Source: Chiloscyllium plagiosum (Eukaryota). From it: a stretch of 64,000 bases of DNA. The DNA lies in assembly GCF_004010195.1 (NCBI RefSeq), contig NC_057756.1, positions 715,805 to 779,804 on the forward strand. The letters run 5' to 3'. The position numbers were made by a program, and so were the translations under genes. A model generated the notes under the pieces. It worked only from the letters and a program-made list of their open reading frames with translations, did not search any database and was not told where the DNA came from. Below, one piece after another: positions 5,487-64,000 of this stretch (its first letter is position 1; every line of letters begins with the position of its first letter).

Positions 5487-5522
5487 AACAGCAAAAACTG
5501 ATGGACTCATTGAAAGAATTCG
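5487..5522 (+). CDS. Coiled-coil micro-exon 1 (36 nt, class A): (E)QQKLMDSLKEF
   Basis: ttattcattctAG acceptor, G|GTGAGC donor, 36 nt, open in phase 1, heptad pattern shared with the other class A exons. Confidence 0.85.
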
Positions 5523-6387
5523 GTGAGCAAAGTGCCTTTGTGTGTTCGTTAAACAATTTAATTTGTTAGCCACAGCAGAAAAATTACAGTTGAACCACCT
5601 GGAATAGAACATAAGTTAAATAACTACAACAACCAGTTTTGAACAGCAGTATGAAAGAGTTAATGAGAAATAGCCGAGTGATAATTGAATTCCCTTGTCC
5701 CACTACAGTCTGAGATAACAGGCCTCAACTACAGCCAACAATTATTCATAATATGTAATTCCGTTAGACTGTGGTTAAACATTTTTCAGTGAACATCAAG
5801 GAACGTATATCATACTGCTAAACGCCAAACGGTTCTCTCAATAAACTCAACACATTCAATAAAAATCATAATATTTGCCAATAGGGATCAGCAATATAAG
5901 CGTTGTTCACAGTATATTTGATCAGGAATCATGTTTAGTAGCAGATCAGCTTGGAGACTTGTTTCACTTCATGGTACCAAGAATGTCTCAATTGCTAAAA
6001 TCTTTGTTCTGTATGCAATTTTCTGTGTAGAGTCTTGAACACAAAAGCTACACTGTATGTTGAAACACAGACTGACTGATGCACTCTAAGATGTGCAGTG
6101 TGTAAGATGGGATGTAAAAAAAAGTTATTTAAGGAGAATGTTAAACTTCCCATTGTTAAATTGCAAGAAAAATGTGGCAAAGTCCGTCTCCATTTTCCTG
6201 ACTTACATTGCTTGCAATACATAGTTCAATTGTACTATTTTGCCATTAACACAGTGATTTTTATATGTAACTATTATAGTCAAATATGTCGTCATAATTC
6301 AGTCAAAGTATTAATCTTTTTACATGTGCATTGTGAAAATTCATCATTCTTTTTTTACTACCAAGTTGTTATTTTCACTCTTCACAG

Positions 6388-6414
6388 AAGAAAAACTGAA
6401 AGCAGCAATCAAAG
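6388..6414 (+). CDS. Coiled-coil micro-exon 2 (27 nt, class B): EEKLKAAIK
   Basis: ttttcactcttcacAG acceptor, AAG|GTAATT donor, EEKLK motif. Confidence 0.9.
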
Positions 6415-6524
6415 GTAATTGGTTTAGAGTGCCATCGTTGTACACCATAAAAACAAATGTATAGGCTCTATAAATTCATAAGATTGCAATTACTGGAAAT
6501 CTGTACTCTAACAAAGAATAAAAA

Positions 6525-7335
6525 TAAAGCTGATGGGGAAATACACCGCCGGTCAGACAACATCTGAGAAGCAGGAGAGTCGACGTTTCAAGCATCATGA
6601 ATGCGGGGAGAGGCAAAGCAGCTTGAGAGATAAATGGCACGGTGGATGGGGCTGGGGGAAGGAATGCGATAGTTGGATGAAGGTGGAGGTTAATTGAGAT
6701 AGGTTGGAAATGAGAGTAGAGTGGATAGTGGGAAGGAAGGTGGCCTTCAAGAGGGTGGTGATGATTTGTAGGTTTGGATCTGAGATAAGGTAGGGCTTGG
6801 GGTAGGCGAGATGAGGAAACTGGTGAAATCAGCATTGATTTCGTGTGGTTTGTGGGTCCCAAGGTGGAAGATGAGGTGTTCTTCCTCCAGTCGTCCTCCA
6901 GTAACCTCCAAGCACACGGAATCGTTGTTGACTTCACCAGAACCCTCCAACCACAAGGAATCAATGTCGAATTCAGCAGTTTCTTTATCTCCCCTCCCCT
7001 CACCTTATCACAGATCCAACCTTCCAACTCGGCACCACCCTTTTAAACTGTCAACTGTCCTATCTGTCCATCTTGCTCCCCACCAATCTGCTCCACCCTC
7101 CACTCAACCCATGACCAACACCCAACCTTCATCCAACTGTCGCATTCCGAGCTGTCTTGCCCCATGCCCCACGTCCCTTCCATTTATTTTTCTGTCTCTT
7201 TACACCTGAATCGCCCACATTTCTGATGAAAACTCGATTCTCCTGCGCCCCGGATGCTGCTTGACCGGCTGCACCTTTCCAGGCCCACACTTTTGTACTT
7301 TACCTTCCAGCATCTGCATCCTCACTTTCTCCCTG
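6525..7335. mobile_element. Penelope-like fragment with inverted plus direct 3' portions
   Basis: 6525-6900 is a minus copy (RLEEEHLIFHLGT...INADFTSF); about 6935-7335 is a plus copy (TLQPQGINVEFSSF plus terminal repeat). Confidence 0.75.
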
Positions 7336-7529
7336 ATCGAAAATTAAAACAATTTGGCCATATCATTCGAGATAAAAAAAACACAGTTGACGTTTCAAAA
7401 CCAATATTACTCCCGAAGAAGAGGCATGCTGGACTTTGGAAAATGAAATCCCTTCCTCGATTGACAACGTTTAGCTGACCTTCTGGATTTTTCCAGCAGC
7501 CTTTTGTTTAATGACTCCAGTTTTCGGGA

Positions 7530-10500
7530 TCAGTGAGGAACGAGGAATGGGGCGCCGTCGAGGAGGTAGGTTTCCCACTTTAAAAGGACTTATCTCGAGT
7601 ATCAGGTCTCAATCTGTCGGGATATGCGAAGAGAGAGGAGCGGAGTCTGCCAGGAGGTAAGTGTCCCACTTAAAAGGGACTTACTTCGAGAGTCAGGCCT
7701 TCATTTTACAGGGCAGGGAGGAGAGAGGAGCGGAGTCTGCCAGGAGATATGTCTCCCACTTAAAACGGACTGACCTCGAAAGTCATCCCTCCATTTTTCC
7801 GGAGCGATGGCTGGCGGAAGTTACACCACTGCTTTAAAAACTTACCACGTGTATAGGTGGAGCACAGGCTGAACAGGAATGAACACGGGACTGCTGAGTA
7901 AGTGAAATAATAGGTGACTCCCACCTATCCTCCTTCTCTAACGAAAAATAAAGGTTCTATGCGCCAGATTGGTAAGGTAACTAGATTTAAAAAAAAAATC
8001 TTTATTTTTTAATGGTCTCTTTGGGGATTTGGAATAGTGGGAATAGCGGTTAGAACAGTTTAATGTTGCTGCAGAATGTGGGACATAAGGGTCTCTGCTG
8101 ACTTCAGCTGTGGGAAGTGCACCCAACACCAGCTACTTGAAAACTGCAACAAGGAACTGGAGCTGGGTGAACATTGGGTCATTCGGGAGGCAGAGGGGGT
8201 TATTGAGAGGAGTCACAAGAAGGTCGTCACACCTCAGCTACAGTAAAAAAAGTAAATTATTTACAGCCAGGAAAAGCAAAGGGAGCCAGCAGACAGTGCA
8301 TGGATCCCCTGTAGCCTATCCCCTCAATGACAAGTATATCGTTTAGGATACCTTTGGGGGGGGGTGGATTTAGCAGGGTTAATCCATGGGGTGCAGGTCT
8401 CTGGCACAGAGTCTGTCCCTGTTTTTCAGAAGGGAAGGGGAATGCAGAGCAGAGCATCTGTCATTGGGAGCGCCATGGTTAGGGGAACAGACAGGAGATT
8501 CTATGGGAATGAGAGAGACTCACGGTTGGTGCGTTACTTCCCAGGTGCAAGGGTTAATGATGTCTTGGATCATGTTTTTGAGGGGAAGGGGGAGCAGCGC
8601 CAAGTCGTGGACAATATTGACACTAACGACACAGGTAGGAAAATAGATGGGGATCTAAGGCAGAAATTCAGGGTGCTAGGGTGGTAGCTTGGAATTAGAA
8701 CAAGCAGAGTTATTATCTCTGGATTGTTAACTGTGCCACGTGCAAGCAATGTGTGGAATAGGGAGAGAGGAGCGTTGAACATGTGGCTACAGCGATGGTG
8801 CAGGAGAGAGGGTTTTGGATACCCGGATAATTGGTGCTCATTCTAGGGTAGATGAGATCTCTAAAACAGGATTATCCACACGATACCAGAGAGGTCCCAA
8901 TATTCTGTGGTGCAGGAAGTGGGGGGCCAGCGGGAGTAATGTGCTAATTCACTCTATAGCACAGGAATGGAAACCTAAACTCGAATTACAGTTTCCAGGA
9001 GGTTGAGAGTATTGAGGTCTGAAATATGGTTTCAAGGTGGCAAGAGTACAATGGCAAGCAGGAAGGTGGTTTGGAGTATGTCTACTTCAAAACCAGGAAC
9101 ATTTGGAATAACGAGGGTGAACTTTAAACATGAGCTTTTACTTGGGACTTCGATACTGTAGCTACTTTGGAGGCATAAATACAGTCGGGACATGAATCGT
9201 TGTTGCAGGATCTGGGATTTAGATGTTTCAGTAAGAACAAAGAGGATGGTAAAAGGGCGAGGGGTGGCATTGTTAGTCAAGGACAGTATTAGATTAGATT
9301 AGATTAGATTAGATTAGATTAGATTNNNNNNNNNNNNNNNNNNNNNNNNNNNNNNNNNNNNNNNNNNNNNNNNNNNNNNNNNNNNNNNNNNNNNNNNNNN
9401 NNNNNNNNNNNNNNNNNNNNNNNNNNNNNNNNNNNNNNNNNNNNNNNNNNNGGAAACCCACGCAGACACGGGGAGAACGTGCAAACTCCACACAGTCAGT
9501 CGCCTGAGGCAGAAAAGACGTTTGAATACTCGTCTACTAAGTTAGTATGGGCTGAGGTTAGAAACAGGAAAGGAACGGTCACCATATTGGGAGTTTTCTA
9601 TAGGCCTACGAATACTTCCAGAGATATAGAGGAAAAGATTGAAATGGTGATACTGCATTGGAGCGAGAGCAACAGGGTAGTTGTTAGAGAGACTTTATTT
9701 TACGAAATATTGACTGGAAATACTATCGTTCAAGTTGTTCAGATGGGTCGGTTTTTGCCCAACGTGTGCAGGAGAGTTTCCTGACACAGTACATAGACAG
9801 GCCAACAAGGGGCAAGGCCACATTGGATATGGTACTGGGTATGAACTTGGCCAGGTGTTAGATTTGTAGTTAGGTGAGCACTTTGCTGATAATGACCACA
9901 ATTCGGTTATGTTTACTTTAGCAATGGAAAGGGGTAGGTACAAACCACAGAGCAAGTCATAACTGGGGGCAAGTCAAATATGATGCTATTAGGCAAGGTT
10001 TAAGATTCATAGAACGGTGAAGGAAACTTCAGGGGATGGGCACAATTAAAGTTTCTAGCTTATTCAAGGAACAGCTACTGTGTGTCCTTGATAGGTATGT
10101 ACCTGCCAGGTACGGAGGAAGTGGTCAGGTGCGGGACTCGCTGTTTACTAAGAAAGTTGAATCTGTCATCAAGAGGAAGAAGAAGGATTATGTTAGGATG
10201 AGACGTGAAGGTTCAGCTGTGGGAGCTTGAGAGTTACATGCTAGCCAGGAAAGACCTAAAGAGAGAATTAAGAAGAGCCAGGAGGAGACATCAGAAGTCA
10301 TTGGCAGATATGATCAAAGAAACCCCTAAAGCTTCCTACAGGTATATCAGGAATCAAAGAATAACGAGAGTAAGATTAGGGCCGATCAAGGACAGTTGTG
10401 AGCGGAATACAAGGAAATAGGAGAAATGCTAAATGAATATTTTTCACCGCTATTGAAACTGGAAAATGCAAAGATGTAGAGGAGAATGCTGATATATATG

Positions 10501-12105
10501 CTATTACACTAGACAGGATTAAGGTTCACAAGCCTGAGGTATTAGCAATTTTGGGAAGTGTGAAAATAGTAAGTCCCCTGAGTGGGATAGAATTTACCCT
10601 AGGATTCTCTGGGAAGCGACAGAGGGGATTGCAGAGCCTTTGGCTTTGATCTTTATGTCGTCATTGTTTACAAGAATAGCGCCTAGAAGACTGGAGAATA
10701 TCAAATGAGGTCCTCTCATTTCAGAAGGGGAGTATAGACAACCCTGGAAATTATAGGCCAGTGAGCCTTACTTCAGTTGTAAGTGTTGGAAAAGGTTGTA
10801 AGAGATAGGATTAAAAATAATCTAGAAAGGAATAGGTTTATCAGGGATAGTCAGCACGGTTTAGAGAAGGGTAGGTCCTGCCTCATAAATATTATTGAGT
10901 TCTTTGAGAAGATGACCAAATAGGTGAATGAGGGAAAAGCGGTTCATGTGGTGCATTTGAATTTCAGTAAGGCGTTTGATAAGGTTTATCATGGTAGGCC
11001 ATTACTCAAAACACGGAGGCATGGTATTGAGGGTGATTGAGAGGTTTGGATCAAAAATTGCCTAGCTGTAAGAAGACAGAGGGTAGGTCCTTGGTGGAAA
11101 TGTTCATCCTGGAGTTCACTTACTAGTGGTATAAAACAGGGATATGTTTTGGGTCCACTGCTGTTTGTCATTTTTAAAAATGACCTGGGTGAGGGCATAG
11201 AAGGATGTGTTAGTAAATTTGCAGGTGACAGTAGGTTCGGTAGAGTTGTAGATAGTGACAAAGGATGTTGTAAGTTACAGAAACACGTAGATAAGCTGCA
11301 GAGCCAGGATGAGAGGTGGCAAATAACGTTTAACGCGGAAAAGTGTGAAATAATTTACTTTGGAAGGAGTAGCAGTAATGCAGAGTACTGGACTAAAGGT
11401 AAGATTATTGCCAGTGTAGATGAGCAGAGAGATCTCGGTGTAAAGGTACACACATCCTTGAAAGTTGCCACCCAGGTTGATAGGATTGTTAAGAAAGCAT
11501 ACGGTGTGTTAGCTTTTATTGGAAGGCGGATTGACTTTCGGAACGATAAGATCATGTGTAGTTGTACAAAACTCGGGTGTGGCCATATGTGGACAATTGC
11601 GTACAGTTCTGGTCACCGCATTATGGTAAGAATGTTGAAGCTTTGGAAAGTTTCAGAGGAGATTTACTAGGATGTTGCCTGGTATGGGGGAAAATTCTTA
11701 TTTGGAAAGGCTGAGGCACTTGAGGCTGTTTTCGTTAGAGGGAAGAAGGCTGAGGGGTTTCTTAATTGAGACATATAAGATAATCAAATGTTAGATAGGT
11801 TGGACAGTGAGAGCCTTTTTTTGTCTGATGACGATGGTTAGCACGAGGCAGCATAGCTTTAAATTGTGGGGTCATACATATTGGACAGATATCAGAGGTT
11901 GTTTCTTCACTCAGACATTAGTAGGGGCGTGAAACGCACTGCCTGCAACAGTAGTCGACATGCCAAATCTAAGGGCATTTAAATGGTCATTGGATAGGCA
12001 TATGGAATTATTTAAGTCAGATGGACTTCACATTGGTTCCGCAGGTTGGTGCAACATCGAGGGCTGAAGGCTTGTTCTATGCTTTAGTGTTCGATGTTCT
12101 GTGTT
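7530..12105 (+). mobile_element. Near-full-length decayed CR1-type LINE (ORF1 esterase-like, ORF2 endonuclease plus RT)
   Basis: ORF1 remnant 'VIGSAMVRGTDRRFYG...RYFPGARVNDV'; EN remnant 'VWAEVRNRKG...LGVFYRP'; RT remnant 'GPLLFVIFKNDL...SKFAGDS'; ttctatg-like 3' tail; many stops and frameshifts. Confidence 0.9.
9290..9510 (-). mobile_element. HE1-like SINE fragment with (AGATT)n tail nested in the CR1 element, spanning gap 9326-9451
   Basis: ggaaacccacgcagacacggggagaacgtgcaaactccacacag is the reverse complement of the V-SINE core seen at 14436-14480. Confidence 0.75.
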
Positions 12106-13480
12106 CAAATGCAACATAACTTCCCAACTTCTATACTTAATGCCATGTATGTTGAAGACCACTTTGCTAAAAGACTTCTGCATTGCCATGTCTATCTGTG
12201 ACTCCACTTTCAGAGAATCGTGCAATTGAACTCCAAGGTCCCTCTGTTCCACCACGGTCCTTGAGGCTCTACCTAACAACTGAAACTCTGAACTTGATTT
12301 GATTTAATATCAACCCATTTCCCCAGATGATAGGTATCAAAGTTCAATTTCTAATAGCCTTCCTCAGTGTGCACAATACCGACAACTTTATTGTCACCTG
12401 CAAACATACTGCTTAATAACGTGACAGTCTCATCCAAATCATTTATGTAGGTAGCAAACTTGTGGGCCCAGCGTCAAAGCCCGAATTACATAACTAATCA
12501 CAGGTTTCCAGTTCAAAAAACATCCTTGCAGGTTTACCCGCTGCTTACAATCATCAGTCCAACTGTTTGCCAGCTGTTCCTGGATTCGATGCGATCTTCC
12601 AGAGCATCCAACCATGTTAGATCAAAAGCCTTACTGATACCCATATAGAATACGCAGTTCCCTCGTGGATCTTTCTTGTCCCTTCGTCAAAGGTCTCTAG
12701 AAAATTTGTGAGGCATGATCTTTCACGGAAAAGCTATTCTTACTACACCTTATCAAATCTTGTCTTTCCAAATGCGTGTATATCTTATCCTTCAAACTCT
12801 TCTCAAGTAAGTTACCTCCCATAGACTTTAGGCTTCTTGGTCTACAGTTTCCAGGTTTTTCTTTGCAGCTCTTCTTGAATAAGAGCACAACATTCTGTAC
12901 CCTCCACTCTTCCAGGACCTCACCCACAGCAAACGATGATGCCACGATATCAACGAGGGACTCACCATTTATTATCAAGCTTCTTACAGGAGTCTTGGAC
13001 ATAACTGATCAGGGTCAGGGGATTTATTACATTCATGAAATCTAACAAGTCCACCACCTCATCTACAATGATCTAGACTGCTCCCAACAGATCACCACGA
13101 ATTTCCTCAAGTTCCCAGTCCTCAAATTTTTTTCCACTTTAAACACTGGAGAAATATTTAACGAGGATCTTGCCCATCGCCTGTGGTTCTGTGTATACAT
13201 GTTCGCTAATGTCCTTGAGTAGTCATATTCTCTCTCTCTGGTTACTCTTTCTCCTTTAATATATTAAAATAATTTCTTTGGAGTCACCCTCATCTTCTCA
13301 GCCAAATCAGACTCATTCCCCCTTCTGGCCCTCTTTATTTCCTTCTTCAGTAAACTCCTGCATTCCCTTTAAATCTTCTAGGATTCCTCAATGCCACCTT
13401 GCTGTACCAGAGTGATTTCTCTTTCTCTATTTTGGACAAAGGCTCAACAGTTCTTGCCACCTTTGGGATCCTGAAATCTG
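12105..13480 (-). mobile_element. Decayed CR1-type LINE ORF2 fragment
   Basis: Minus ORFs 'EQRDLGVQLHDSLKVESQ' and 'EWRVQNVVLLFKKSCKEKPGNCRP'. Confidence 0.8.
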
Positions 13481-14354
13481 CCAATTTCTTGCGTTAATAT
13501 GTGCATATTGATTGAGACTCCATACTTCTCTCAGGGAAAAGAACCCAAAGATTCAAAATCGTTTTCTGAATGAATCCATTCCCATTCTCAGTCTTAAAAT
13601 ATCACCCTTGTATTGTATGCACATCAGTTCTCAACACGCTGAGATGACGTACGACTCAACTACTACTGCCATCCATGCCTAATGCCTAATTCTATTCAAT
13701 GTTAATGGTTAATGTTGGAAATATTTGATACTGTCACATGTGTACTGTATGTTTGTGTAAACGCTATTACTGAAAGTTTATCAATCTCAGTGAAAAAAAA
13801 TCGTAAACACCCTCGAGATAAAAGAAATACAAAGGGAATTAATATTCATCATTTCCCATTGTTTGTGCAATGGTTTCTAAACCTAATTTATGTTCTTTTA
13901 AAACCTGTTAGGTTTAAAAAAGGTTCTTATTTAAGGAAGGTTATCCTCGACTAATGACAGGAATTGGAGTGTTGTTTTATGAGAACTATTGTGTCAAGAT
14001 AGGCCTGCATCTGAAGTACCTTAAAACAGCAAGATGTGACTTCATGATAACATATATGGCCCTCTACAGTTTGAAATAATAGATGAAAAGATGTTGCTTT
14101 GACTCGTGAAATAACCTAGCTCTGCGTCGAGATTTTAAAAGCAAGGCATTGCCCATTTAAATCAATTAGCCCCTCAGCATGTGAGATTTTGGAGCTCCCT
14201 TCCTCAAAAGGTAATAAATGTTGTACTTTAACTTTTTTTTTAAACACAGAGAGAGACTGATTGCTGATAAGCCAGTGCCAGGAAGATTAGTAGGGAATAG
14301 GTGTAAGTTTGACAGGTTGAGGTTGTATTCCAACACTTGTCATTTTACAAATGG

Positions 14355-14662
14355 TGACACAGGGGCTCAGTGGTTAGCACTGCTGCTTCACAATGCCAGG
14401 GACCTGGGCTCGATCCCAACCTCGGGCGACGGAATGTGTGGAGTTTGCACAATCTCCCGTGTCTGTGTGGATTTTCCTCCAGATGCACCGGTTCCCTCCC
14501 ACAGTCCAAAGATGTGCAAGTTAGGTGAATTGACTATGCGAAATTGCCAACTGTGTTCTGGGATGTGTAGGTTAGGTGCATTTGTCAGGGGCAATATAGA
14601 GTAGGGGAACAGTTCTGTGTGGTATAGTCTTCAGCCTGTTTCCATGCTGTAAGGTTTCTATG
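14355..14662 (+). mobile_element. tRNA-derived V-SINE (HE1-like)
   Basis: A-box and B-box-like segments (cagtggttagcac...ggctcgatccc), followed by tgtgtggagtttgcac...cccacagtccaaagatgtgc core. Confidence 0.8.
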
Positions 14663-15305
14663 GAACGGCAGAAAAAGTGCTGAGGGGTCTTTTGTCGCAA
14701 GTAATTCATAGATTGTTTGTTTACAAGATTTAATTATAATCTAACAAACGATTGGAATGAATTTCTGAATATGCAGCAAACATATTTTTCGATTAATTTC
14801 TTCAGTGTAAGGACCATCCATCATATAGTCATTTATTTATCAAATGTCTGCAGTGAATATTTATATGTGTGCCTTTGAAATCTGGTGATCTGATTATGAT
14901 GAACACATCATTAGCAGTCGTATGCAAGCGTTGAATTCTGAAGACAAACACGTTTAATTGATAATCAGTATCCGAATCTGGGTGATTAAAAAAATATACT
15001 GAATAAGACCAAATGTATACTGTTGAATTTGCTTGCAGTAAATAACATATAAATCATCAATTCAGTTTAGGAAAAAAAAAATGCCATAGGAAAATGTTGG
15101 AAATGGGAATTACAATGATGATTCTGCAACAGCTCAGCATCATCGTTCGGATTCACACAGCAATTTCGTAATTTAGAAAGGATACCTTCCTTAAAGATAT
15201 TCGCTTGCCCCATTAGTTTGCTGCTTGATTGACTTAAAATAATAAGTAGCAAACGAATCCTAAATCAATGGATATTTAAATATAAACACTGTTTTTGTAT
15301 TTCAG

Positions 15306-15341
15306 AAAAAAACACTTGTGAAGAATCTTTGGAAGATTTAG
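15306..15341 (+). CDS. Coiled-coil micro-exon 3 (36 nt, A): EKNTCEESLEDL
   Basis: tttttgtatttcAG acceptor, TAG|GTAAAG donor. Confidence 0.9.
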   Translation, partial: KKTLVKNLWKI

Positions 15342-16290: not shown

Positions 16291-16702
16291 GAAGCATCCC
16301 AACTGCATCTTGCAGAACTCATGGAAGGTACAACGTTTGTGTAGGCACACAAGATACTTTAAGCGTGAAGATAACAAAAATTAATAAAAGTTTCAGTTAA
16401 GTTTCTCTTATATTTTCTTTTTCATTCTTCCCTGGAAGTAGTCATTGAATCTATAAGGACGTAAAAGTGCCTATGTGAATTCACATTGGTACAAGTGGCG
16501 ATTATTAATCGATATACAAGGAAAAGTGCCCAATAATTATGTAATAACCAATTATCTGTGATTCAGGAAAATTGTTTGTTTCGATCATTACATGGGAAAT
16601 CGTATATTTACATCCTATCAGGCACAAACTTTACATTTATCTCCAAAATCCGATTGAAATAGCTCTTTTTATCTTCAACTTAAATTATTTTCTCTGAAAC
16701 AG

Positions 16703-16729
16703 AGGAAAAGTTGAAAGAAAAAGACAAAG
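16703..16729 (+). CDS. Coiled-coil micro-exon 4 (27 nt, B): EEKLKEKDK
   Basis: ttttctctgaaacAG acceptor, AAG|GTACTT donor. Confidence 0.9.
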
Positions 16730-17249
16730 GTACTTGCTATTCAGAGATCGACGTTGTGAATGTTTATTATTGAATGATGTATAATGTTAAATTATTCCCT
16801 GCTTTCATCATCCACAATACATTATTGTCAATGATACAAATTCACATCTCCAAAATGAAACTCAAACTTTTTCTGATAAGGCCAGGATGTTTAATGCATT
16901 GTTTCACACATTTTGATTCAAAGTGTTGCAGCCCAGGCATGGGTCCAAGATACATTTCGACTAATCGGAAAATATAAGCTTCCAATTAACCCATTTCCCT
17001 GTAGACGTGTACCCACTGTAAATGTCTTTAAAGCTGACAGATACTTCCCGAAATCGATTTTGTAGTGCTCTTTCGTTCTTGCTTGGATAATTCCCCAGGA
17101 AATTAAATGGGAAATCATGTGGATCATCAGCTAGTTAATGATACAAATATGACCTGTTATGACAAGTTGACACCTCAATTTCGTAGTCTCAAAATCTGGA
17201 CTGCACCCCGATCAGACACATCTCCTGATCAGAATTAAGTAGCACCGAA

Positions 17250-18312
17250 CCTAGGATATAGCACAGAGAACATTTCGTGCAGTGCAGGCCCTTCTTCCTC
17301 GATGTTGCGCTGATCTGTGAAACCAACCTGAAGCCCACCTAACCTATAATATTCCATTTTCATCCATATATTTAACAATGACCATTTAAATGCCCTTAAA
17401 TTTGGCGAGTCTATTACTGTTGTGGCAGGGCATTCCATATCCCTACTTATCTCTCAATAAAGAAACTATCTCTGACATCTGTCCTATATTGATCACTCTT
17501 CAGTTTAAAGATGTGTTGCCGCGTGTTAGCCATCACCATCCGAGAAAAAAGGCTCTCACTTCCCACCTCATTTAACCCTCTGATCACCTTGTATGTCTCA
17601 AATAAGTCACATTGCATCTTTCTCTCTTGAAAACAGCCTCAAGTCTTTCACCTTTTCCTCATAAGACCATCTCTCCTTACCAGGCAACATCCTAGTATAT
17701 CTCGTCTGCACCCTTTCCAAAGTTCCTACATCATGCCTAAAATGAGACGATCAGAACTATATACAATTCTTCAAGTGCAGCCACACCAGAGTTTTGCAAA
17801 GCTGCAACATGACCTCGTGGCTCTGAAACTCAAGACCTCGAACAAAAAAGTTGATGCACAGTACACCTTCTGAACAACTCCATCAGGCTGGGTGGCAACG
17901 TTCAGGAATCTGTGAACACGGACACCATGATCTCTCTGCTCATCTACACTACCAAGAATCTTACCATTTGCCCAGTTTTATGTATTCATGTTCCTTCCAA
18001 AGTGATCACTTCACACTTTTCCGCATTGAACTCCATTTGTCACCTCTCAGCCCAGCTCTGCAGCTTATCTATGTACCTGTCTAACTTGCAACATCCTTCT
18101 GCACTATCCACAACTCCACCAAAATTAGTGTCATCTACAGATTTGCTAACCCGTCCTTCTACACCCTCATCTTGTTCATTTATGAAAATGACAAACAGCA
18201 GTGGCCCCAAAACAGATCCTTGTGGTACACTAATAAATGAAGTCCAGGATGGACATGTCTCATCAACAACCACCATCTGTCTTCTTTCAACTAGCAAATT
18301 TTTGTTCCAACC
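17250..18312 (-). mobile_element. 5'-truncated CR1-type LINE, same family as 7530-12105
   Basis: Minus ORF 'SVPQGSVLGPLLFVIFINE...SKSVDDT'; 3' end matches the 11950-12100 region. Confidence 0.85.
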
Positions 18313-18527
18313 TAAAAAGTCCTGCAGGCTTGGCAACCAGCACATTCAATTTTACCACGTGTTAGACTACCTATCAGTCACGCGAAGAATCTTCTATGAT
18401 ATCCAGAATCCATTCTAAACATTCGCCAATTAATGTTTGCAATTCATTATGAGCCAACGTCCAAACTAGGATGCCTCAGCATATTTTACCACTGCCCCAC
18501 ATCTGAAATGATGCTGCTGTTCCTTTT

Positions 18528-18764
18528 CTTAAAAATGTGTTGTGTTGCTAGAAAAGCGCTGCAGGTCAGGCAGCATCAAAGGAACAGGAGGTTCGACGTT
18601 TCGGGCATAAGCCCTTCTTCAGGAATCCTGAAGATTCCTGAAGAAGGTCTTATGCCCGAAACGTCGATTCTGCTATTCCTTTGATGCTGCCTGATCTGCT
18701 GCGCTTTTCCAGCAACATATTTTGAAACTCTGATCTCCAGCATCTGCAGTCCTCACTTTCTCCC
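18528..18764. mobile_element. Second Penelope-like terminal-repeat hairpin insertion with a 12-bp TSD
   Basis: Imperfect inverted arms of about 85 bp; gctgttcctttt at 18516-18527 and 18765-18776. Confidence 0.82.
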
Positions 18765-19009
18765 GCTGTTCCTTTTACCCACTTCTCCATGTATTCCTGT
18801 CTGTAACTGTCACCTGCTGGAATTATTTATGGTCTTTATTTTTTACAAATACATTACTTGGTGCTTCTTCATTTATAGCTGTGTGGGTGATTTGTAACCA
18901 CATGTACACAATGGAAAACATAGATTGGAACATTGACAACACAAGAAGAATTTCACCAGAAGTATCAATGGCCATTCATAATTATCGAGTAACTTTTCCT
19001 GAATTGCAG

Positions 19010-19045
19010 AGCTAACAAACTGTCAAGACGAACTGAAGAATTTTG
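19010..19045 (+). CDS. Coiled-coil micro-exon 5 (36 nt, A): ELTNCQDELKNF
   Basis: cttttcctgaattgcAG acceptor, TTG|GTGAGG donor. Confidence 0.9.
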
Positions 19046-20036: not shown

Positions 20037-20063
20037 AAGAAAAGCTAAAAGGAAAAAGCAAAG
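20037..20063 (+). CDS. Coiled-coil micro-exon 6 (27 nt, B): EEKLKGKSK
   Basis: tttttactctttttAG acceptor, AAG|GTAGCT donor. Confidence 0.9.
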
Positions 20064-20287
20064 GTAGCTTTTCATAAAAATAAAAAAAAATCACTTTCCT
20101 GCCTTACATTTCTGTGTGTTACTTACTGCTGTGTAACATTTTCCTGGAGCATTGTGATAACCACAGAACGAACAAGATATTGAATTCTTTTGCTGCAGGT
20201 TACCTAATATAACAGAATAAGTAAAGCAAAGTTAAAGAAATATTATTGACCTGTAACTGGCATAACCCAACTTACTTACTATTCCAG

Positions 20288-20323
20288 AATTAATCGAATG
20301 TGAAGAACGTGTGGAAGAATTAG
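20288..20323 (+). CDS. Coiled-coil micro-exon 7 (36 nt, A): ELIECEERVEEL
   Basis: cttactattccAG acceptor, TAG|GTCTGG donor; follows exon 6 after a 224-nt intron. Confidence 0.88.
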
Positions 20324-21346: not shown

Positions 21347-21373
21347 GAGGCAAACTGAAAGAAAACGAAAAAG
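21347..21373 (+). CDS. Coiled-coil micro-exon 8 (27 nt, B): GGKLKENEK
   Basis: ctttatacctaacAG acceptor, AAG|GTACCT donor. Confidence 0.88.
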
Positions 21374-23558: not shown

Positions 23559-23594
23559 AAATAACTGAATTTAAAAAATCGTTGGAGGAATTAG
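23559..23594 (+). CDS. Coiled-coil micro-exon 9 (36 nt, A): EITEFKKSLEEL
   Basis: tcttcatatattacAG acceptor, TAG|GTGAGA donor. Confidence 0.9.
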
Positions 23595-25791: not shown

Positions 25792-25818
25792 AAGCAAAAT
25801 TAACAGAAAAAGAGGAAG
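25792..25818 (+). CDS. Coiled-coil micro-exon 10 (27 nt, B): EAKLTEKEE
   Basis: tctttgtgtcatctgttacAG acceptor, AAG|GTATGT donor. Confidence 0.9.
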
Positions 25819-33920: not shown

Positions 33921-33947
33921 AATTGGCTGCTGTACGAAGAAAATGTA
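33921..33947 (+). CDS. Atypical micro-exon 11 (27 nt, in a class A slot): ELAAVRRKC
   Basis: Strong ttttaacttttttttAG acceptor and GTAAGT donor, in phase, starts with EL like class A; the peptide is otherwise divergent. Confidence 0.65.
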
Positions 33948-35898: not shown

Positions 35899-35925
35899 AA
35901 TCAGAACTTGAGCAGAAAGCTGAAG
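35899..35925 (+). CDS. Coiled-coil micro-exon 12 (27 nt, B): (K/E)SELEQKAE
   Basis: cctcttctcctgcAG acceptor, AAG|GTAAAA donor, Leu at position 4 and Lys at position 7 as in class B. Confidence 0.85.
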
Positions 35926-36591: not shown

Positions 36592-36627
36592 AAATAGCAA
36601 ACTTCAACAAGAAGATGAAAGATCTAG
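36592..36627 (+). CDS. Coiled-coil micro-exon 13 (36 nt, A): EIANFNKKMKDL
   Basis: ttttctttttcAG acceptor, TAG|GTGGGT donor. Confidence 0.9.
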
Positions 36628-37861: not shown

Positions 37862-37876
37862 AACAAACAGTAAATG
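37862..37876 (+). CDS. Micro-exon 14 (15 nt, class C): EQTVN
   Basis: atttaattcacAG acceptor, ATG|GTAAGT donor; occupies a class B slot; same size and attcacAG context as exon 18. Confidence 0.7.
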
Positions 37877-42859: not shown

Positions 42860-42895
42860 ATCTGAACAACTGTCAAACAGCACTGAAAGATTTGG
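42860..42895 (+). CDS. Coiled-coil micro-exon 15 (36 nt, A): DLNNCQTALKDL
   Basis: cttttgtctgattgcAG acceptor, TGG|GTGAGT donor. Confidence 0.9.
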
Positions 42896-43488: not shown

Positions 43489-43515
43489 AAGAAAAACATA
43501 AAGAAAAAGAAAAAG
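43489..43515 (+). CDS. Coiled-coil micro-exon 16 (27 nt, B): EEKHKEKEK
   Basis: Long polypyrimidine tract ending cgtgtAG, AAG|GTTAAC donor. Confidence 0.88.
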
Positions 43516-47405: not shown

Positions 47406-47441
47406 AGCTAATCGACTGTCAAGAAGTTCTGAAACAATTTG
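47406..47441 (+). CDS. Coiled-coil micro-exon 17 (36 nt, A): ELIDCQEVLKQF
   Basis: cctcttcatttttcAG acceptor, TTG|GTGAAG donor. Confidence 0.9.
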
Positions 47442-51626: not shown

Positions 51627-51641
51627 AAGCTACAAAACAAG
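51627..51641 (+). CDS. Micro-exon 18 (15 nt, class C): EATKQ
   Basis: tttcttcctccctgaccgattcacAG acceptor, AAG|GTGAGC donor; occupies a class B slot. Confidence 0.75.
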
Positions 51642-51823: not shown

Positions 51824-51896
51824 ATTCTGGAGCCCGTCTTTGAAATCCCATTTCAACGTATGCAGCAAAATACAGCATTAAAAACTTTATTTCTAT

Positions 51897-52396
51897 NNNN
51901 NNNNNNNNNNNNNNNNNNNNNNNNNNNNNNNNNNNNNNNNNNNNNNNNNNNNNNNNNNNNNNNNNNNNNNNNNNNNNNNNNNNNNNNNNNNNNNNNNNNN
52001 NNNNNNNNNNNNNNNNNNNNNNNNNNNNNNNNNNNNNNNNNNNNNNNNNNNNNNNNNNNNNNNNNNNNNNNNNNNNNNNNNNNNNNNNNNNNNNNNNNNN
52101 NNNNNNNNNNNNNNNNNNNNNNNNNNNNNNNNNNNNNNNNNNNNNNNNNNNNNNNNNNNNNNNNNNNNNNNNNNNNNNNNNNNNNNNNNNNNNNNNNNNN
52201 NNNNNNNNNNNNNNNNNNNNNNNNNNNNNNNNNNNNNNNNNNNNNNNNNNNNNNNNNNNNNNNNNNNNNNNNNNNNNNNNNNNNNNNNNNNNNNNNNNNN
52301 NNNNNNNNNNNNNNNNNNNNNNNNNNNNNNNNNNNNNNNNNNNNNNNNNNNNNNNNNNNNNNNNNNNNNNNNNNNNNNNNNNNNNNNNNNNNNNNN
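51897..52396. other. Assembly gap (500 N)
   Basis: Run of N. Confidence 0.99.
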
Positions 52397-54405: not shown

Positions 54406-54441
54406 AACTAACCAACTGCCACTCAGCTCTAAAAGAATTAG
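54406..54441 (+). CDS. Coiled-coil micro-exon 19 (36 nt, A): ELTNCHSALKEL
   Basis: ttttctgaattgcAG acceptor, TAG|GTGAGC donor. Confidence 0.9.
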
Positions 54442-54811: not shown

Positions 54812-54838
54812 AAGACAATCTCAAATCAAAAGTTAAAG
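54812..54838 (+). CDS. Coiled-coil micro-exon 20 (27 nt, B): EDNLKSKVK
   Basis: ttatgtgttttaaacAG acceptor, AAG|GTAGCT donor. Confidence 0.88.
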
Positions 54839-55055
54839 GTAGCTAAGAAAAAGAACCACTGAATAAAACCTGATAATTGTTTTTTGTTTTTGCCAAATTG
54901 TTTCTATGCCTGATGTAGGAGTGCCTCGACTTATTAGTGCTGTTTGCTAAAACAAGATTACAAGTGTTAACACAGGAGCTACTTTACAAATTGATTGCTA
55001 CTTTGAATACTGAATTGTGCATAATCGTTTTACAGCAAAATCCAATTTAGAATCA

Positions 55056-55075
55056 ATCTATCTATCTATCCAGTC

Positions 55076-55161
<86 letters not shown>

Positions 55162-55488
55162 NNNNNNNNNNNNNNNNNNNNNNNNNNNNNNNNNNNNNNN
55201 NNNNNNNNNNNNNNNNNNNNNNNNNNNNNNNNNNNNNNNNNNNNNNNNNNNNNNNNNNNNNNNNNNNNNNNNNNNNNNNNNNNNNNNNNNNNNNNNNNNN
55301 NNNNNNNNNNNNNNNNNNNNNNNNNNNNNNNNNNNNNNNNNNNNNNNNNNNNNNNNNNNNNNNNNNNNNNNNNNNNNNNNNNNNNNNNNNNNNNNNNNNN
55401 NNNNNNNNNNNNNNNNNNNNNNNNNNNNNNNNNNNNNNNNNNNNNNNNNNNNNNNNNNNNNNNNNNNNNNNNNNNNNNNNNNNNNNNN

Positions 55489-55524
<36 letters not shown>

Positions 55525-55650
55525 GTCTGTGTGCCTGTCTGTCTATCTATCTACCTACTTGTCTACTTATCTACCTACCTGTCTATCCATCTGTCTGTCT
55601 ATCTATCTACCTGTCTATCCATCTACCTTTCTATCTATCTGTCTGTCTGT
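55056..55650. repeat. (TATC)n/(TGTC)n microsatellite spanning gap 55162-55488
   Basis: Direct reading. Confidence 0.95.
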
Positions 55651-56204
55651 AAGCTGACCAAAATATGAAATGGTGTGTTGAACATGCATTCAGTTTTGAA
55701 GCCTTCAAATATGAACGTTGTGCAAGTTGAAGTCCAAACATACTGCATAGTATTCATTGAGATTTAATGTCCTGTTCCGTGCTTAACTACATGAGTAAAT
55801 GAACGTTCTGCGTTTTTCAATCAAAAAGAAGTAACGACTAGCACGAAGAGGTTACAAAAAAAGTATTTGATCCATTTCAATCAATTGTTAATGAGCCAGT
55901 TGCATTGCATGATGTGTGTATTCTGCTGCTCAAAACTCATTGATGCATGATGAATAGTGTTTACACCCTTGCTATTTCCATTAATTCACCAATACACTAC
56001 ATGTTTTGCTATGTGATAGTGAATGTGAGCGTGAATATTTGGGGCCGAAATAAATATCAGGACAGTATTAAGATTAATCAAGACACAATGCAAATTAATT
56101 TTCTGACATGACATAAGTAGGCATTGAATATACACATCAGGATAAAGTCAGTAGAATGTGCTGAAATTAAAATTCACTTACATTTTTGCGTTTCAATTTG
56201 CCAG

Positions 56205-56240
56205 AGCTCGAAGCATGCAAAGAAGCAGAAAAGGAATTAG
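56205..56240 (+). CDS. Coiled-coil micro-exon 21 (36 nt, A): ELEACKEAEKEL
   Basis: tttttgcgtttcaatttgccAG acceptor, TAG|GTACTA donor. Confidence 0.9.
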   Translation, partial: SSKHAKKQKRN

Positions 56241-56460: not shown

Positions 56461-59400
56461 AGAGTCATAGTCATAGAAATGTACAGCACAGAAATAGACC
56501 CTTCAGTCCAACTCGTGCATGCCGAGCAGATATCCCAACTCAATCTTGTCCCACCTGCCAGCACTCGGCCCATATATCCCTTCAAACCCTTCCTATACAT
56601 ATACTCATTCAGATGCCTTTTAAATGTTGCAATCATACAAGCCTCCACCACTTCCTCTAGCAGCTCATTCCATACACGTACCGCCGTCTGCTTGAAACAA
56701 ATGCCTCTTAGGTGTCTTTTATATCTTTCTCCTCTCACCCTAAACCTAAGCGCTATAGTTTTGGACTTCCCCACCCCAGAGAAAAGACCTTTTCCATTTA
56801 CCCTACCCATGTCCCCCATGATTTTATAAACATTTCGGCTCTCCAGGGAAAATAGCTACAGCCTAATCAACTTCTCCCTATTACACAAACCCTCCAACCG
56901 TGGCAACAACTTTGTAAACATTTTCTGAACTCTTTCATGTTTTACAACATCTTTCCGATAGGAAGGAGACCAAAATTACACACAATGTTCCAAACGTGGC
57001 CTAACCAATGTCCTGTACAGCTGCAACATAACCTCCCAACTCCTGTACTCAGTACTCTGATCGATAAAGGAAAGCATTCCAAACGCCTTCTTCACTATCT
57101 TATCTAATTGTGACTCCAGTTTCAAGGAGCTGTGAACCTGCACTCCATGGTCTCTTTGTTCAGCAATGCTCCCTAGGACCTTATCATTAAGGGTGTGAGT
57201 CCTGCTAAGATGTGCTTTTCCAAAATGCAGCTCCTCGCATTTATCTGAATTAAACTCCATCTGCCACTTCTCAGCCCATTGGACCATCTACTCAGTATCC
57301 CGTTGTAACCTGAAGTAACCTTCTTTGCTGTCCACTACACCTCCAATTTGGGTGTCATCTGCAAACTTACAAATTATAACTCTTATGCTCATATCAAAAG
57401 CATGTATGTAAATAATGAAAAGTCGTGGACCCAGCATCAATCCTTGTGGCACTCCACTGGTCACAGGCCTCCAGACTGAAAAAAAAACGTCCACCTCCCC
57501 CCCTTCTATCTTTAAGCCAGTTCTGTATCCAAATGGCTAGTTCTCCCTGTATTCCATTCGACCTAATCTTGCTAAACAGTCTCGCATGGGAACCTTGTCA
57601 ACTGCCTTACTGAAGACCATATAGATCACGTCCACTGCTCTGCCCTAATCAATCCTCTGTGCTACTTCTTCAAAAAGTTCTATCAAGTTTGTGAGACTTG
57701 GTTTTCCACGCACAAAGCCATTTTGACTGTCCCTAATCTGTCCTATCTTTTCCAAATACATGTACATCCTGTCCTTCGTGATTCCCTCCAACAACTTACC
57801 TACCGTCGGCGTTAGGCTCACTGGTCTACAGTTCCCTGGCTTGTCCTTACCACCCTTCTTAAACAGTGGCACCACTTCCGCCAACCTCCAGTCTTTCAGC
57901 ACCTTTCCTGTGACTATTGAATATTCAAATATCTCAGCAAGGGGTCCAGCAATCACTTCCATAGCTTCCCTCAGCATTCTAGGGTACACCTGATCAGGTC
58001 CTGGGGATTTATCCACGTTTATGCGTTTGAAGACATCCAGCGCTTCCTCCTTTCTAATATGAACATATTTCAAGATGTCGCCATCTACGTCCCTACATTA
58101 TATACTTTCCATGTCCATTTCCACAGTAAACAATGATGCAAAATACTCGTTTAGTATCTCTCTCATCTGCTGCTCTTCCACACAAAAGGCCGCCTTGCAA
58201 ATGCCTGAGGGGTCCTATTCTCTCCCTAGTTACCCTTTTCTCCTTAATACATTTGTAAAAACACTTTGGATTCTTCCTAACTCTATTTGCCAAAGTTATC
58301 TCATGTCCCCTTTTTGCCCTTCTGTTTTCCTTCTTAAGTATACTCCTACTGCCGTTATACTTTTCTAAGAAGTCATTTCATTTATCTTTTGTATATCTGA
58401 TATATCTTCCTTCATATTCTAAAACAAACCCTCAATTTCTTTAGTCACCCATCATTCCCTATACCTACCAGCCTTTCCTTGCACTCGAACAGGAATTTCC
58501 CATCTCTGAACTCTCGTTATCTCATTTCTGAAGGCTTCCCATTTTTCAGCCGTCATTTTACTTGTGAACACATGCCCCCCAATCAGCTTTTGAAAGTTCT
58601 GACTAATACCGTCAAAATTAACTTTCCCCCAAATTAGAACTTCAACTTTTAGATATGGTCTATCCTTTTCCATCACTATTTTAAGACTAATCGAATTACG
58701 GTCGCTGGCCCCAAAGTGCCCCTCTGACACCTCCGTCACCTGCCCTGCTTTATTCCCAAGAGTATTGCACCTTCTCTAATAGGTGTATCCACATATTGAA
58801 TCAGAAAATTTTCTTTTACACACTTGTACATAAATTCGTCTCCTTCTAAACTCTTAACGCTATGGCAGTTTTAGTCTATGTTTGGAAAGTTAAAATTTCC
58901 TACCATAACCACCCTATTATTCGTTAAGATACCTGAGATCTCCTTACAAATCTGTTTCTCAATTTCCATCTGGCAATCACGTGATATCCCTTTCTTATTT
59001 CTCAGTTCCACCCAAATACCTTCTATGAATGTATTTCCGGGAATATGCGCCCTCAGTACAGTTGCAATGCTATGCTCTATCAAAAACGCCGCTCCATCTC
59101 CTCTCTTGGCTCCCTTTCTGTCCTTCCTGTAGCAAATGCATCCTGGAACATTAAGCTGCGTGTCCTGTCCATCCCTGAGCCACGTTTTTGTAAATGCTAT
59201 AACATTGCAGTCCCATGCTTGTAACCATGCTCTGAGTTCATCTACCTTCCCTGTTCTCCCTCTTGCATTGAAATAAATGCAGTTAATTTATCAGTCCTAC
59301 CTTGTTCACTGCGTGGTCCCTGCCTGCCCTGATTCGCTTCTTATCTCGTCTGTACCTGTCTCAGATTGATGTCTTGCCTCACTATCTCCCTCTCTTCCAC

Positions 59401-60950: not shown

Positions 60951-61671
60951 TGTCAACAATTAGTCTCGAATAAAATGTTTTTCGGTTCTGTAAGTTAATT
61001 AAATCACTGGATGTAATCTTATGGTAGCATCAAGCTAATGGAAGATCCCTAGATAAATATCCACAACAACTTACGGCAGGTGCCATGGGATAATTCAGTG
61101 ATGAAACCTGTTACGTAGTTAGAAGCTACATTTTGAAGTCCAACTACAGCAATACATAGCATAGTAATATCCATCATGAAATGATCCAATATTAAATTTT
61201 CCAGCATGCACCAAAACCATCCAGTTAGAGAGGGAGAGATTTTTTTTCAGTGAGATGACAAGAATACATTGGAGATCCTGTTGTTATAATCTATATGTTA
61301 CAATATGTATATCAAGCACATCAATTCTGTCTCCTGGTGCGTGTGATATGCTTGGTATATATGGATCAGTTTGGTGCTTATAACACAAAGCATCGACTTC
61401 TTCTGCTGTTGGGATATATTTTGAATGTGGTTCCTCACCCTACCATCCATGGGTCTAATTTTGTTAACAATGGGTCTGCGTTGCCACCGGAAATTCATAA
61501 ATAAGGAACGAATTGCATCACTATGCACGCATTTGTCTTAACATTATAGAGAATTATAGGCAGGTTGCTATAAAGTAATACTTCTGCAAATTATGTTTTA
61601 TATAAATGTATCTTTAAGGATGCAAACGCGTTAAAAATTATTTAATCATCCTATTTTATTTCTTCTAAAAG

Positions 61672-61698
61672 GAGAAAAGCTGGAAAGCAAAACGAAAG
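61672..61698 (+). CDS. Coiled-coil micro-exon 22 (27 nt, B): GEKLESKTK
   Basis: ttttatttcttctaaaAG acceptor, AAG|GTAATA donor. Confidence 0.87.
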
Positions 61699-63984
61699 GT
61701 AATAGTATAACTATGCACTGATCTAAATAGAAGAACGTTTTTGTGCCGTTTTACGAATATAATTTCACCTCATATAATTCACGAATGAAGGCCTTTTCTT
61801 CTCCTTAAATTTCAAAGATACTAATGCAAATATCTCCTGAAATGTGTTTGTCACATAACATAAAGATTCAGCTTGCGTTGACAATCAATTTTAAATTAAA
61901 TAACATTAGCTATCAAATAGTAAGAAACTGAAAACGAAAACCAGGAGGAACTTACCGATTAAATTAATCTTTGGAAAGTGGAATTTATTGCTGTATGCGT
62001 ATTTTAAGGAAACATACAAGTTTGGTAAAGAAATAAAGGAAGGCTAAACTTAAAGAGTGAGATAAATTAGTCGAAGCAGGGACTCAATCGTATTATATGA
62101 ACAGTTATACTTCATGCTGTACTTGTGGAGAAGAAAAAGTGAGCATTTTGAGTTGTGGATGCCCCTTTCCTGGAATGGAAGTGCTTTGGAACATGATCAT
62201 TTACATCTTCTCAATAAAAAGGAGCTGCAAGTCGAACAGTTGGTGGAATGGCCCACTACGAAATCAAAGTAGACAGCTAATTCTGGTAGACAATTTGCAT
62301 AGACTGCAGAAGAAAGGATTTAGCTGATTGGACCTTCACAGGCTTTTTTACAGAACGTCAGTGCCCGTTTCCAGACCCCTGCATTTTTTCTTCCCGAATC
62401 GGTGTGCTCTATTTGCATCAAAATGGTCTCGAAATGTCCTCTTCGACTGTTAAATTGAACTTGAGATAATCACATTTCATGGCAGTACATACGAGGATAA
62501 GTTTTCAGAGCAGGGTAAGCATCTGGCACCTCCAGCCTGCTATGGAAGTCAATGAGATCATGGCTGATCTGTTTTTGTCGACTCAGCTCCAGTTAACCAT
62601 CTGCGCACCACAACTCTTAATTCCTTTACTGGTGAAATATCTATATTTCCCTTAAAAAAATTCAAGAAGTAGCCACAACCACTTCACTGGGTGGGGAGTT
62701 CCAGAAATTCACAACTATTAGGGGTAAGAAATTCCACATCAGTTCAATCGTAAATCAGCCCACACTCCTATTTTGACTCTATGCTCCCTATTTCTAGTTT
62801 CACCCGTATATGCTTATGTTTTATCTATTCCTCTCATAATTGTAGAGGTTTCTATCATATCCCCCTTCGTTCTTCTAAATTTCAATGTGTAGAGTCTGAG
62901 TCCACTCAATGGCACCTCCTAAGTAAAGCCTCTCAATTTCAGAATTAACATCCGATGCACCTCCTCCAGCGGTTCTTTGTCAATTAATATTCTTTGTCAA
63001 GTAAGCAGACCACAACTGCCTGCAATAATCCAGGGTGCGGCCTCAGCAGAACCCTATATAGCTGCAAAGTAACTTCCCTATTTTTAAACTCTATCCCTCT
63101 ACTAATGAAGAACAATATTCCATTTTCCATTGTACTATTGACTGTGTCAGCAAGTGTTTTTTCCCCACATTTGCTTGCTTCTTTTGCACATCAGTGGTCT
63201 TTCTTCCTTCATCCATTTACGCAGAGAAACAGCTTTTCACTGTCTATCCTATCCAGCCGACTCATTATTTCGGATCCTGTATAAACTCTAATCCCAGCCT
63301 CCTTCTCTCAAAGTAAAACAGGACCAACCACTTCAATAGATCCTCATATTGGAATTTTTTCATTGCTCTAACCGTTATTTTAAATCCTTTCTGCACTGTG
63401 TTCAAAGAAATCCAACCTTCCCACCAATATAGTGCCCATAACTGAACACAATATTCCGGCTGAAGTCAAACAAATGTAAACAGGTTCAACATCATCTACT
63501 GCGATTGAACTGTATGCCCCATTCATAAAATAAAGGGCACTGTAATTTTGGCAAACTGGTTTCCCCTGCTTTACAGCCACATTCAAAGCTGTATGTGAAA
63601 ACTCATTCATGCCGCACTGTTCCAGAAACACTTTCACAACGCTCCACTCTTGTTCATATTATTTTCCAATGTTCTTGCAAGCAACGTTATTCAGACCTAT
63701 ATTTCTGTACAGTGGAAATAATCTGACACCAAGCCACTCATTAGTTACAGATAGTAACAGATAGTTACACAATGTAAATTGGTTTCACCCAGTACATTTC
63801 AGTGACAGAAACAAATGTCAATTCCAAGCACGATTTTCATAAGAAGTAACGAATCAAGTTTTATGACTCAAAAGGAAAGTTACCTCACTGTATTAAGCTA
63901 TTTGTAAAACTGCTGAGGTAAAGATAAATGCTGACCTGTTTGAGCAACATTATTTAAATAATATATTATATTTTTCCTTGTTAG

Positions 63985-64000
63985 AGTTTGAAGACTTTCA
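63985..64000 (+). CDS. Probable micro-exon 23 (class A, cut by the window end): EFEDF...
   Basis: tttttccttgttAG acceptor; hydrophobic residues at positions 2 and 5 as in class A; donor not visible. Confidence 0.6.

Follow-up and report, generated by a model that had tools for sequence, protein, structure and literature searches.

We analyzed a window of 64,000 nucleotides from the shark Chiloscyllium plagiosum, corresponding to positions 715805-779804 on the plus strand of contig C47 (NC_057756.1) in a 3.56-Gb assembly, and found in it a series of very short exons of recurring, exact lengths. In our judgment, the window is probably (at about 0.75) the middle of one very large plus-strand protein-coding gene, with at least 84 micro-exons spread over at least 337 kb. 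The exons of the window are not a product of chance, as several controls confirmed, and their sequence supports a micro-exon gene for a predicted long coiled coil. Below, we describe the exons and the controls, the array that extends beyond the window together with the protein it would encode, and the readings that compete with ours.

Micro-exons of the window and controls for chance

The exons were recovered de novo from the letters of the window by scanning for AG-[N]-GT units in phase 1/1. The scan yielded ten complete exons of 36 nucleotides (nt), ten of 27 nt and two of 15 nt, 660 nt in sum. Every one of them is bounded by AG and GT, in phase 1/1, open and located on the plus strand. This is the same set of 22 complete exons that a first-pass annotation of the window had proposed, and the additional partial exon listed there was recovered as well, proving to have 27 nt, the last 11 of which lie past the window edge. 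The exons are preceded by pyrimidine-rich tracts, and their donors are mostly GTAAG or GTGAG. The intron range given earlier (224 nt to about 8.9 kb) was also reproduced: the shortest intron measures 224 nt (20064-20287) and the longest inside the window 8891 nt (6415-15305).

The exons are listed below by window coordinates, strand and class. Class A denotes 36-nt exons and class B Lys/Glu-rich 27-nt exons; class C exons have 27 nt and end in Cys, and class D exons are their 27-nt partners. The evidence for each exon follows the semicolon, where "scan" stands for the AG-[N]-GT scan, "pattern" for a genome-wide exon pattern and "matrices" for scoring matrices trained outside the window.

5487..5522, plus: 36-nt exon, class A variant (core Cys replaced by Leu); AG/GT, phase 1/1, open
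6388..6414, plus: 27-nt exon, class B (Lys/Glu-rich); scan and matrices
15306..15341, plus: 36-nt exon, class A with core Cys; scan and matrices
16703..16729, plus: 27-nt exon, class B; scan, pattern and matrices
19010..19045, plus: 36-nt exon, class A with core Cys; scan and pattern
20037..20063, plus: 27-nt exon, class B; scan, pattern and matrices
20288..20323, plus: 36-nt exon, class A with core Cys, after the shortest intron (224 nt); scan and matrices
21347..21373, plus: 27-nt exon, class B, junction codon Gly; scan, pattern and matrices
23559..23594, plus: 36-nt exon, class A variant (Phe at the core position); scan and matrices
25792..25818, plus: 27-nt exon, class B; scan, pattern and matrices
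33921..33947, plus: 27-nt exon, class C (Cys-ending, last base A); acceptor score 7.1, donor score 7.9
35899..35925, plus: 27-nt exon, class D (partner after class C); scan and pattern
36592..36627, plus: 36-nt exon, class A variant (Phe at the core position); scan
37862..37876, plus: 15-nt exon in the place expected for class B; splice score 18.1, weaker than the other exons
42860..42895, plus: 36-nt exon, class A with core Cys; scan, pattern and matrices
43489..43515, plus: 27-nt exon, class B; scan and matrices
47406..47441, plus: 36-nt exon, class A with core Cys; scan and matrices
51627..51641, plus: 15-nt exon in the place expected for class B, with a gap of 500 N (51897-52396) downstream; weaker than the other exons
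54406..54441, plus: 36-nt exon, class A with core Cys; scan and matrices
54812..54838, plus: 27-nt exon, class B; scan, pattern and matrices
56205..56240, plus: 36-nt exon, class A with core Cys; scan and matrices
61672..61698, plus: 27-nt exon, class B, junction codon Gly; scan, pattern and matrices
63985..64000, plus: first 16 bases of a 27-nt class C exon, with 11 more bases past the window; acceptor score 7.6, donor score 7.4 (from flank sequence)

The support for the two 15-nt exons of the window consists of their splice-site score and their position; across 353 kb, a generic splice and composition filter returned five 15-nt candidates on the plus strand and none on the minus strand. Class C and D exons form pairs at irregular intervals, starting at window coordinates 33921/35899, 63985/67101, 78601/81154 and 153283/156608 (the last two beyond the window), and these may serve as sub-domain markers. 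Each C+D pair encodes 18 residues, versus 21 for an A+B pair, and since a class C exon ends in the base A, the next junction codon is Lys. The earlier statement that unspliced open reading frames (ORFs) cannot assemble the gene agrees with our survey of the window, where none of the 50 ORFs of at least 110 codons corresponds to the micro-exon feature. Several of the long ORFs are instead fragments of long interspersed nuclear elements (LINEs) within introns.

Raw counts of open AG..GT units of the exon lengths were alike on the two strands of the window (415 on the plus strand and 427 on the minus strand), so that any enrichment is confined to a specific exon family. For this family, we scored the window with amino-acid matrices trained on 21 class A and 18 class B exons lying outside it. 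These leave-window-out matrices recovered 15 of the 19 class A and class B exons of the window on the plus strand and none on the minus strand, and 100 first-order Markov simulations gave a mean of 0.04 matches per window, with a maximum of 2. The first-pass annotation had named an equally frequent exon series on the minus strand or in shuffled sequence as one observation that would count against the gene, and no such series appeared on the minus strand or in the simulations. In a splice-blind peptide scan of 344 kb, 32 class A matches were found on the plus strand, 30 of which had AG and GT at their exact borders, and none on the minus strand; for class B, there were 33 matches on the plus strand, 27 with exact borders, and 11 on the minus strand, none with such borders.

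Three further counts favored the same strand. A simple filter over 264 kb detected 53 exon-like units on the plus strand versus 3 on the minus strand; the scoring matrices, applied at a threshold of 8 to 324 kb, detected 58 versus 0; and the generic splice-score and composition filter (353 kb) retained 64 candidates versus 2. The 64 plus-strand candidates comprised 30 of 36 nt, 25 of 27 nt, five of 15 nt, two of 21 nt and two of other lengths. We also matched exon patterns against the entire genome, of which contig C47 makes up 0.3%. The share of matches that fell on the array stretch was 8 of 35, 12 of 98, 13 of 36 and 8 of 22 for the individual patterns. Reversed-pattern controls matched 42, 82, 27 and 23 times genome-wide, approximately the number of real-pattern matches off the locus. 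One looser pattern, with 475 matches genome-wide, was uninformative for this contig.

These controls refute the reading that the series arose by chance in DNA rich in AT and purines, or from a dispersed repeat carrying AG and GT, and we assign it next to no probability. The abundance of open AG..GT units on both strands and the 11 Lys/Glu-rich 8-mers on the minus strand speak for such a reading. However, no minus-strand match had splice borders, the simulated windows were practically empty, and the genome-wide pattern matches concentrate on the array locus, with the reversed controls yielding 23-82 matches over the whole genome. Moreover, the flanks of the exons are unrelated to one another, and the series is thus not a repeat element.

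The modeled array and its predicted protein

The same exon types run on along the plus strand past the window in both directions. Our model of the array comprises 84 exons (39 of 36 nt, 39 of 27 nt, five of 15 nt and one of 21 nt) that join into 2553 nt encoding 850 residues with no stop. It spans C47:591868-929212, or 337,345 bases, of which 0.76% would be coding, and its intron lengths lie between 224 and 19,459 nt (median 2764 nt). The first-pass count of "at least 22" exons was therefore sound in that all of them are present, but it was a large understatement. Its placement of the start and the stop outside the window is in accord with the model, as the window holds neither end of the array. 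Both 337 kb and 84 exons are lower bounds, since the contig was covered from about 577 to 930 kb and neither end of the gene was reached. Splice signals recur throughout the model: 77 of the 84 exons end in G, 73 start with AA or AG, and 38 have a GTAAG or GTGAG donor. Toward both ends of the array, the exons diverge from the core consensus and Cys is lost. The genome pattern scans placed a further exon-like match at C47:963164-963199.

The same exon types recur in a second plus-strand cluster 3.6 Mb away (C47:4329139-4384605), where the patterns gave one class A match and four class B matches. There, an A match precedes a B match by about 1.2 kb (4357190/4358440), which suggests a paralogous micro-exon gene downstream of the array. 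A single class-B-type match was also seen at C47:3974704. Within the array, two class-A-like peptide matches at about C47:620330 and 814641 (scores 15.3 and 12.7) have no AG and GT at their expected borders and could represent exons that have decayed or whose boundaries lie elsewhere. Runs of N, representing assembly gaps, occur in introns of the array at window positions 9326-9451, 51897-52396 and 55162-55488, and could conceal exons. The last of these gaps is embedded in a simple tetranucleotide-type repeat (55014-55668).

The composition of the 850-residue model is dominated by Glu (21%), Lys (20.5%) and Leu (13.6%), followed by Cys (3.6%), Val (2.1%) and Gly (1.6%), with no Pro, a value that may be affected by the preselection of 27 less certain exons against Pro and Trp. 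Its hydrophobic residues recur with a period of 3.5 residues, as in heptad coiled coils (power 4.7, whereas 200 shuffles gave 0.34 on average and at most 1.62), and long stretches are free of helix breakers. A pair of 36-nt and 27-nt exons encodes 21 residues, which equals three heptads. Across 22 clean A+B units, the a positions are occupied by Leu in 16, 17 and 18 units, and the d positions by Cys in 17, by Leu or Phe in 16 and by Lys in 19. Similarly, position g15 is Lys in 17 of the 22 units, opposite e20, which is Glu or Asp in 13. Of the 30 intervals between the 31 Cys of the model, 14 measure exactly 21 residues; where the core Cys is missing, Leu, Phe or Ile is found instead, as would be anticipated in a core. 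Each intron splits a codon, leaving its G at the end of one exon and its other two bases at the start of the next, and this codon encodes Glu in 73 of the 84 exons and Gly in 3. Overall, the long coiled coil of the first-pass annotation gained support from the 3.5-residue period, the clean a/d core, the restriction of conservation to exons, and the exact exon lengths and phase.

We infer splicing, oligomer state, disulfides, cellular location and function from these sequence features. Spliced exon pairs would produce an unbroken alpha-helical heptad pattern with Leu at a and with Cys, Leu/Phe and Lys at d. The a/d pattern, the charge pairs between g and e, and the one buried polar residue per three heptads point to a rod that is probably a long, parallel, in-register, two-stranded coiled coil. 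We applied the generally known rules of coiled-coil interpretation, including a rise of about 0.15 nm per residue, by which 850 residues would extend over about 125 nm. The core Cys recurring each 21 residues may form interchain disulfides that staple the two chains to each other. The product would be a putative structural protein of the secretory pathway or the extracellular space, a location suggested by the core Cys disulfides and by the exons being all in phase 1/1, a structure typical of extracellular modules. Because every exon is symmetric, its gain, loss or skipping keeps the reading frame, and that of a whole pair keeps the heptad register as well; 15-nt exons and the 18-residue C+D pairs would shift the register.

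Age of the exons and competing readings

Mean identity within exon classes is 0.56 for class A and 0.64 for class B, whereas the 60-nt flanks reach 0.30-0.33, which is the background for the local composition. When each exon was compared with its closest partner, mean identity was 0.71 in the exons versus 0.41 and 0.38 in the adjoining 25 nt. With exons 56-64% alike beside flanks at 30-33%, the duplications appear to be old and conservation to be confined to the exons. One exon pair stands at 89% identity and appears younger. Within class A, identity is highest at second codon positions (0.73) and lowest at third positions (0.44). Exon lengths are exact, while intron lengths vary almost a hundredfold and the introns contain LINE fragments. 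Such a pattern would be expected if the exons had multiplied by ancient tandem duplication and then been kept by selection, and we propose that the gene expanded as exon pairs, and larger blocks as well, were duplicated in tandem long ago. Like the first-pass annotation, we infer purifying selection, in our case from the exon/intron contrast and the intact splice sites.

Several observations weigh against one large, expressed gene for a secreted rod. The ratio of nonsynonymous to synonymous differences per site (pN/pS) among paralogous exons was 0.53-0.60, near the 0.57-0.72 obtained in one shifted control frame, and this measure was thus not counted as support; the claim of purifying selection stands on the exon/intron contrast and the splice sites, and gains nothing from a pN/pS that is not below that of the shifted frame. 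The heptad register changes 15 times in the model, leaving 16 segments of 20-99 residues, and these breaks are either real discontinuities of the rod, for which the 15-nt and 21-nt exons and the C+D pairs could account, or the result of exons absent from or misplaced in the model. The alternation of exon types, regular within the window, is less so outside it, and that the array is a single gene and not several tandem genes is an assumption. The first-pass annotation had suggested scanning the flanks for more units as well as for the terminal domains of the protein. Further exons were indeed found in both directions, but the 29 kb upstream of the first clear exon (C47:577005-606000) contained two weak candidates and no convincing first exon or signal peptide, so that the term "secreted" is without direct support. 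In addition, the matrices and splice weights were trained on exons preselected for AG/GT borders and an open frame, which makes the lack of stops and part of the plus-strand counts circular; the splice-blind scan, the leave-window-out test with its simulations and the minus-strand counts are free of this circularity.

The RNA evidence also belongs on this side. A look-up with a 10-kb stretch of the locus listed no RNA dataset. We mapped reads from two single-cell RNA runs, one presumed RNA run and one DNA run to positions 16690-36689 of the window and obtained zero RNA depth on the exon bins; as about 2% and about 6% of two raw-read runs were covered, this is no test of expression. The reads from the RNA runs all fell on repeats, for example at 18024-19357 and 29363-30029. 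Both of these stretches have an enormous excess of coverage in the DNA run too, and the RNA-run reads on them derive from the repeat family and not from this locus. Short reads from the gene itself would need to cross several micro-exon junctions.

The most serious alternative, which we hold to be a considerable possibility though short of even odds, accepts the exons as real and supposes that the gene is already part of the public annotation or the literature, for example as an "uncharacterised coiled-coil protein" in shark RefSeq or as a known coiled-coil rod. Automatic pipelines backed by RNA-seq do detect short exons with strong splice sites, such as those seen here, and the paralogous cluster on the same contig points to a small family that other genomes may share. 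On the other hand, a full-text literature search returned, among its listings and abstract openings, no description of a coiled coil built from alternating 36/27-nt exons. If the gene proved to be annotated, its structure would stand, but it would be neither hidden nor new; the architecture would be noteworthy and the finding descriptive. We consider it unlikely that no constitutive 84-exon transcript exists and that the array represents several tandem genes, or a pool of cassette exons from which each mRNA takes a subset, yielding shorter and variable proteins. The symmetry of the exons, by which any subset stays in frame, would suit such an arrangement; the C+D pairs at irregular intervals (33921, 63985, 78601, 153283) could mark its sub-units, and the 15 register changes would be less troublesome if only local runs of exons were joined. 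Yet within the 353 kb we saw no candidates for first or last exons, no signal-peptide start codons and no other exon types, and the splice sites are uniformly strong, unlike the weak sites usual for cassette exons.

A dead or dying gene, in which a formerly functional exon array has lost its expression, seems to us very improbable. The absence of RNA evidence, the two class-A-like matches without splice sites at about 620330 and 814641, which are perhaps decayed, and a pN/pS that does not discriminate would all be compatible with such a fate. However, 30 of the 32 class A matches and 27 of the 33 class B matches retain exact splice dinucleotides and lengths, while the introns have reached background identity and are filled with LINEs; neutral decay over so long a time would have broken many sites and frames.

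Known systems and the surroundings of the exons

A single large gene for a coiled-coil rod, the reading we prefer, has partial counterparts among genes of known architecture. The elastin gene consists mostly of intron, and its internal exons are short, in phase 1/1 and of two alternating types. The array resembles it as a long structural-protein gene with alternating symmetric exons, whose gain, loss or skipping keeps the frame. In contrast to the hydrophobic Gly/Val/Pro domains and Lys/Ala cross-link domains of elastin, the array encodes heptads with no Pro and 1.6% Gly, and its exons have fixed lengths of 36 and 27 nt. Non-fibrillar collagen genes contain exons of 27, 36, 45 and 54 nt that split a Gly codon; the array likewise has long series of short symmetric exons, mostly sized in multiples of 9 nt, and its split codon also starts with G. 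Unlike in collagens, there is no Gly-X-Y repeat, the split codon mostly encodes Glu, the period is 7 and not 3, and exon lengths of 15 and 21 nt fall outside the multiples of 9. The composition of collagen or elastin was not found in the model (1.6% Gly, no Pro, 2.1% Val).

Schistosome micro-exon genes (MEGs) encode small, flatworm-specific secreted proteins from a few to about 20 micro-exons, and these proteins are not known to be coiled coils. In genes of this type, the micro-exons lie between ordinary first and last exons, the first of which encodes a signal peptide; for the array, C47:577005-606000 gave no convincing first exon. As in MEGs, the coding sequence lies mostly in symmetric exons of at most 36 nt and is missed by an unspliced ORF scan; all 84 modeled exons measure 15-36 nt and are in phase 1/1. 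The array differs from MEGs in its at least 84 exons, at least 850 residues, median intron of 2764 nt and vertebrate host, and assignment to the schistosome type was rejected on the size of the product and the shark host. In the titin PEVK region and in nebulin, closely spaced exons with lengths of about 75-105 nt or more encode repeats that are disordered or bind actin. The array shares with them a giant vertebrate gene, one or two exons per structural repeat and a length set by exon duplication, and departs from them in its 27/36-nt exons, its 0.76% coding share and its three-heptad repeat with a core Cys. Triadin has many tiny exons and is rich in Lys and Glu, but it is Pro-rich and is not known to have Leu heptads, and it was rejected on this composition. 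The array is thus filed under none of collagen, elastin and schistosome MEGs; its sequence suggests a cassette-exon structural-protein gene of a previously known general kind, in a new form.

If the gene is transcribed as modeled, its architecture would be extreme for a vertebrate, with at least 84 exons of 15-36 nt, 0.76% coding sequence and one exon pair per protein repeat. The array would clearly illustrate how a heptad coiled coil can grow by cassette-exon duplication, the route proposed for collagens and elastin. It would also put annotation and micro-exon-aware mapping to a severe test, as a read of 100-150 bases would span three to five junctions. The product would represent an unstudied structural material, namely a rod stapled by disulfides in which every third heptad buries a Lys. 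More tentatively, and with doubt outweighing confidence, we suggest that cartilaginous fishes might possess an undescribed small gene family, comprising this locus and the cluster 3.6 Mb away. Each member would have more than 80 micro-exons, with an exon pair encoding three heptads, and would form a cable longer than 100 nm that carries a core disulfide per 21 residues. Splicing could set the length of the cable in steps of 21 residues (about 3 nm), and the genes would be largely missed by standard gene finders and short-read aligners.

The DNA surrounding the exons of the window has a G+C content of 38% over the window as a whole, and an Rfam scan of the whole window gave no matches. The LINE fragments within the introns are as follows.

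11041-11670, plus: RVT_1 LINE fragment; E 2.8e-07
57645-58097 and 58871-59287, minus: LINE fragments, with a weak match to RVT_1 (E 0.008) and one to Exo_endo_phos that falls below the curated cut-off (E 0.00044)

The stretches 18024-19357 and 29363-30029 are copies, in opposite orientation, of a very abundant repeat, with a word depth above 200,000 in the DNA run. Many reads link position 18727 with positions of about 29573-29576 on opposite strands, both sites lying in these repeat copies.

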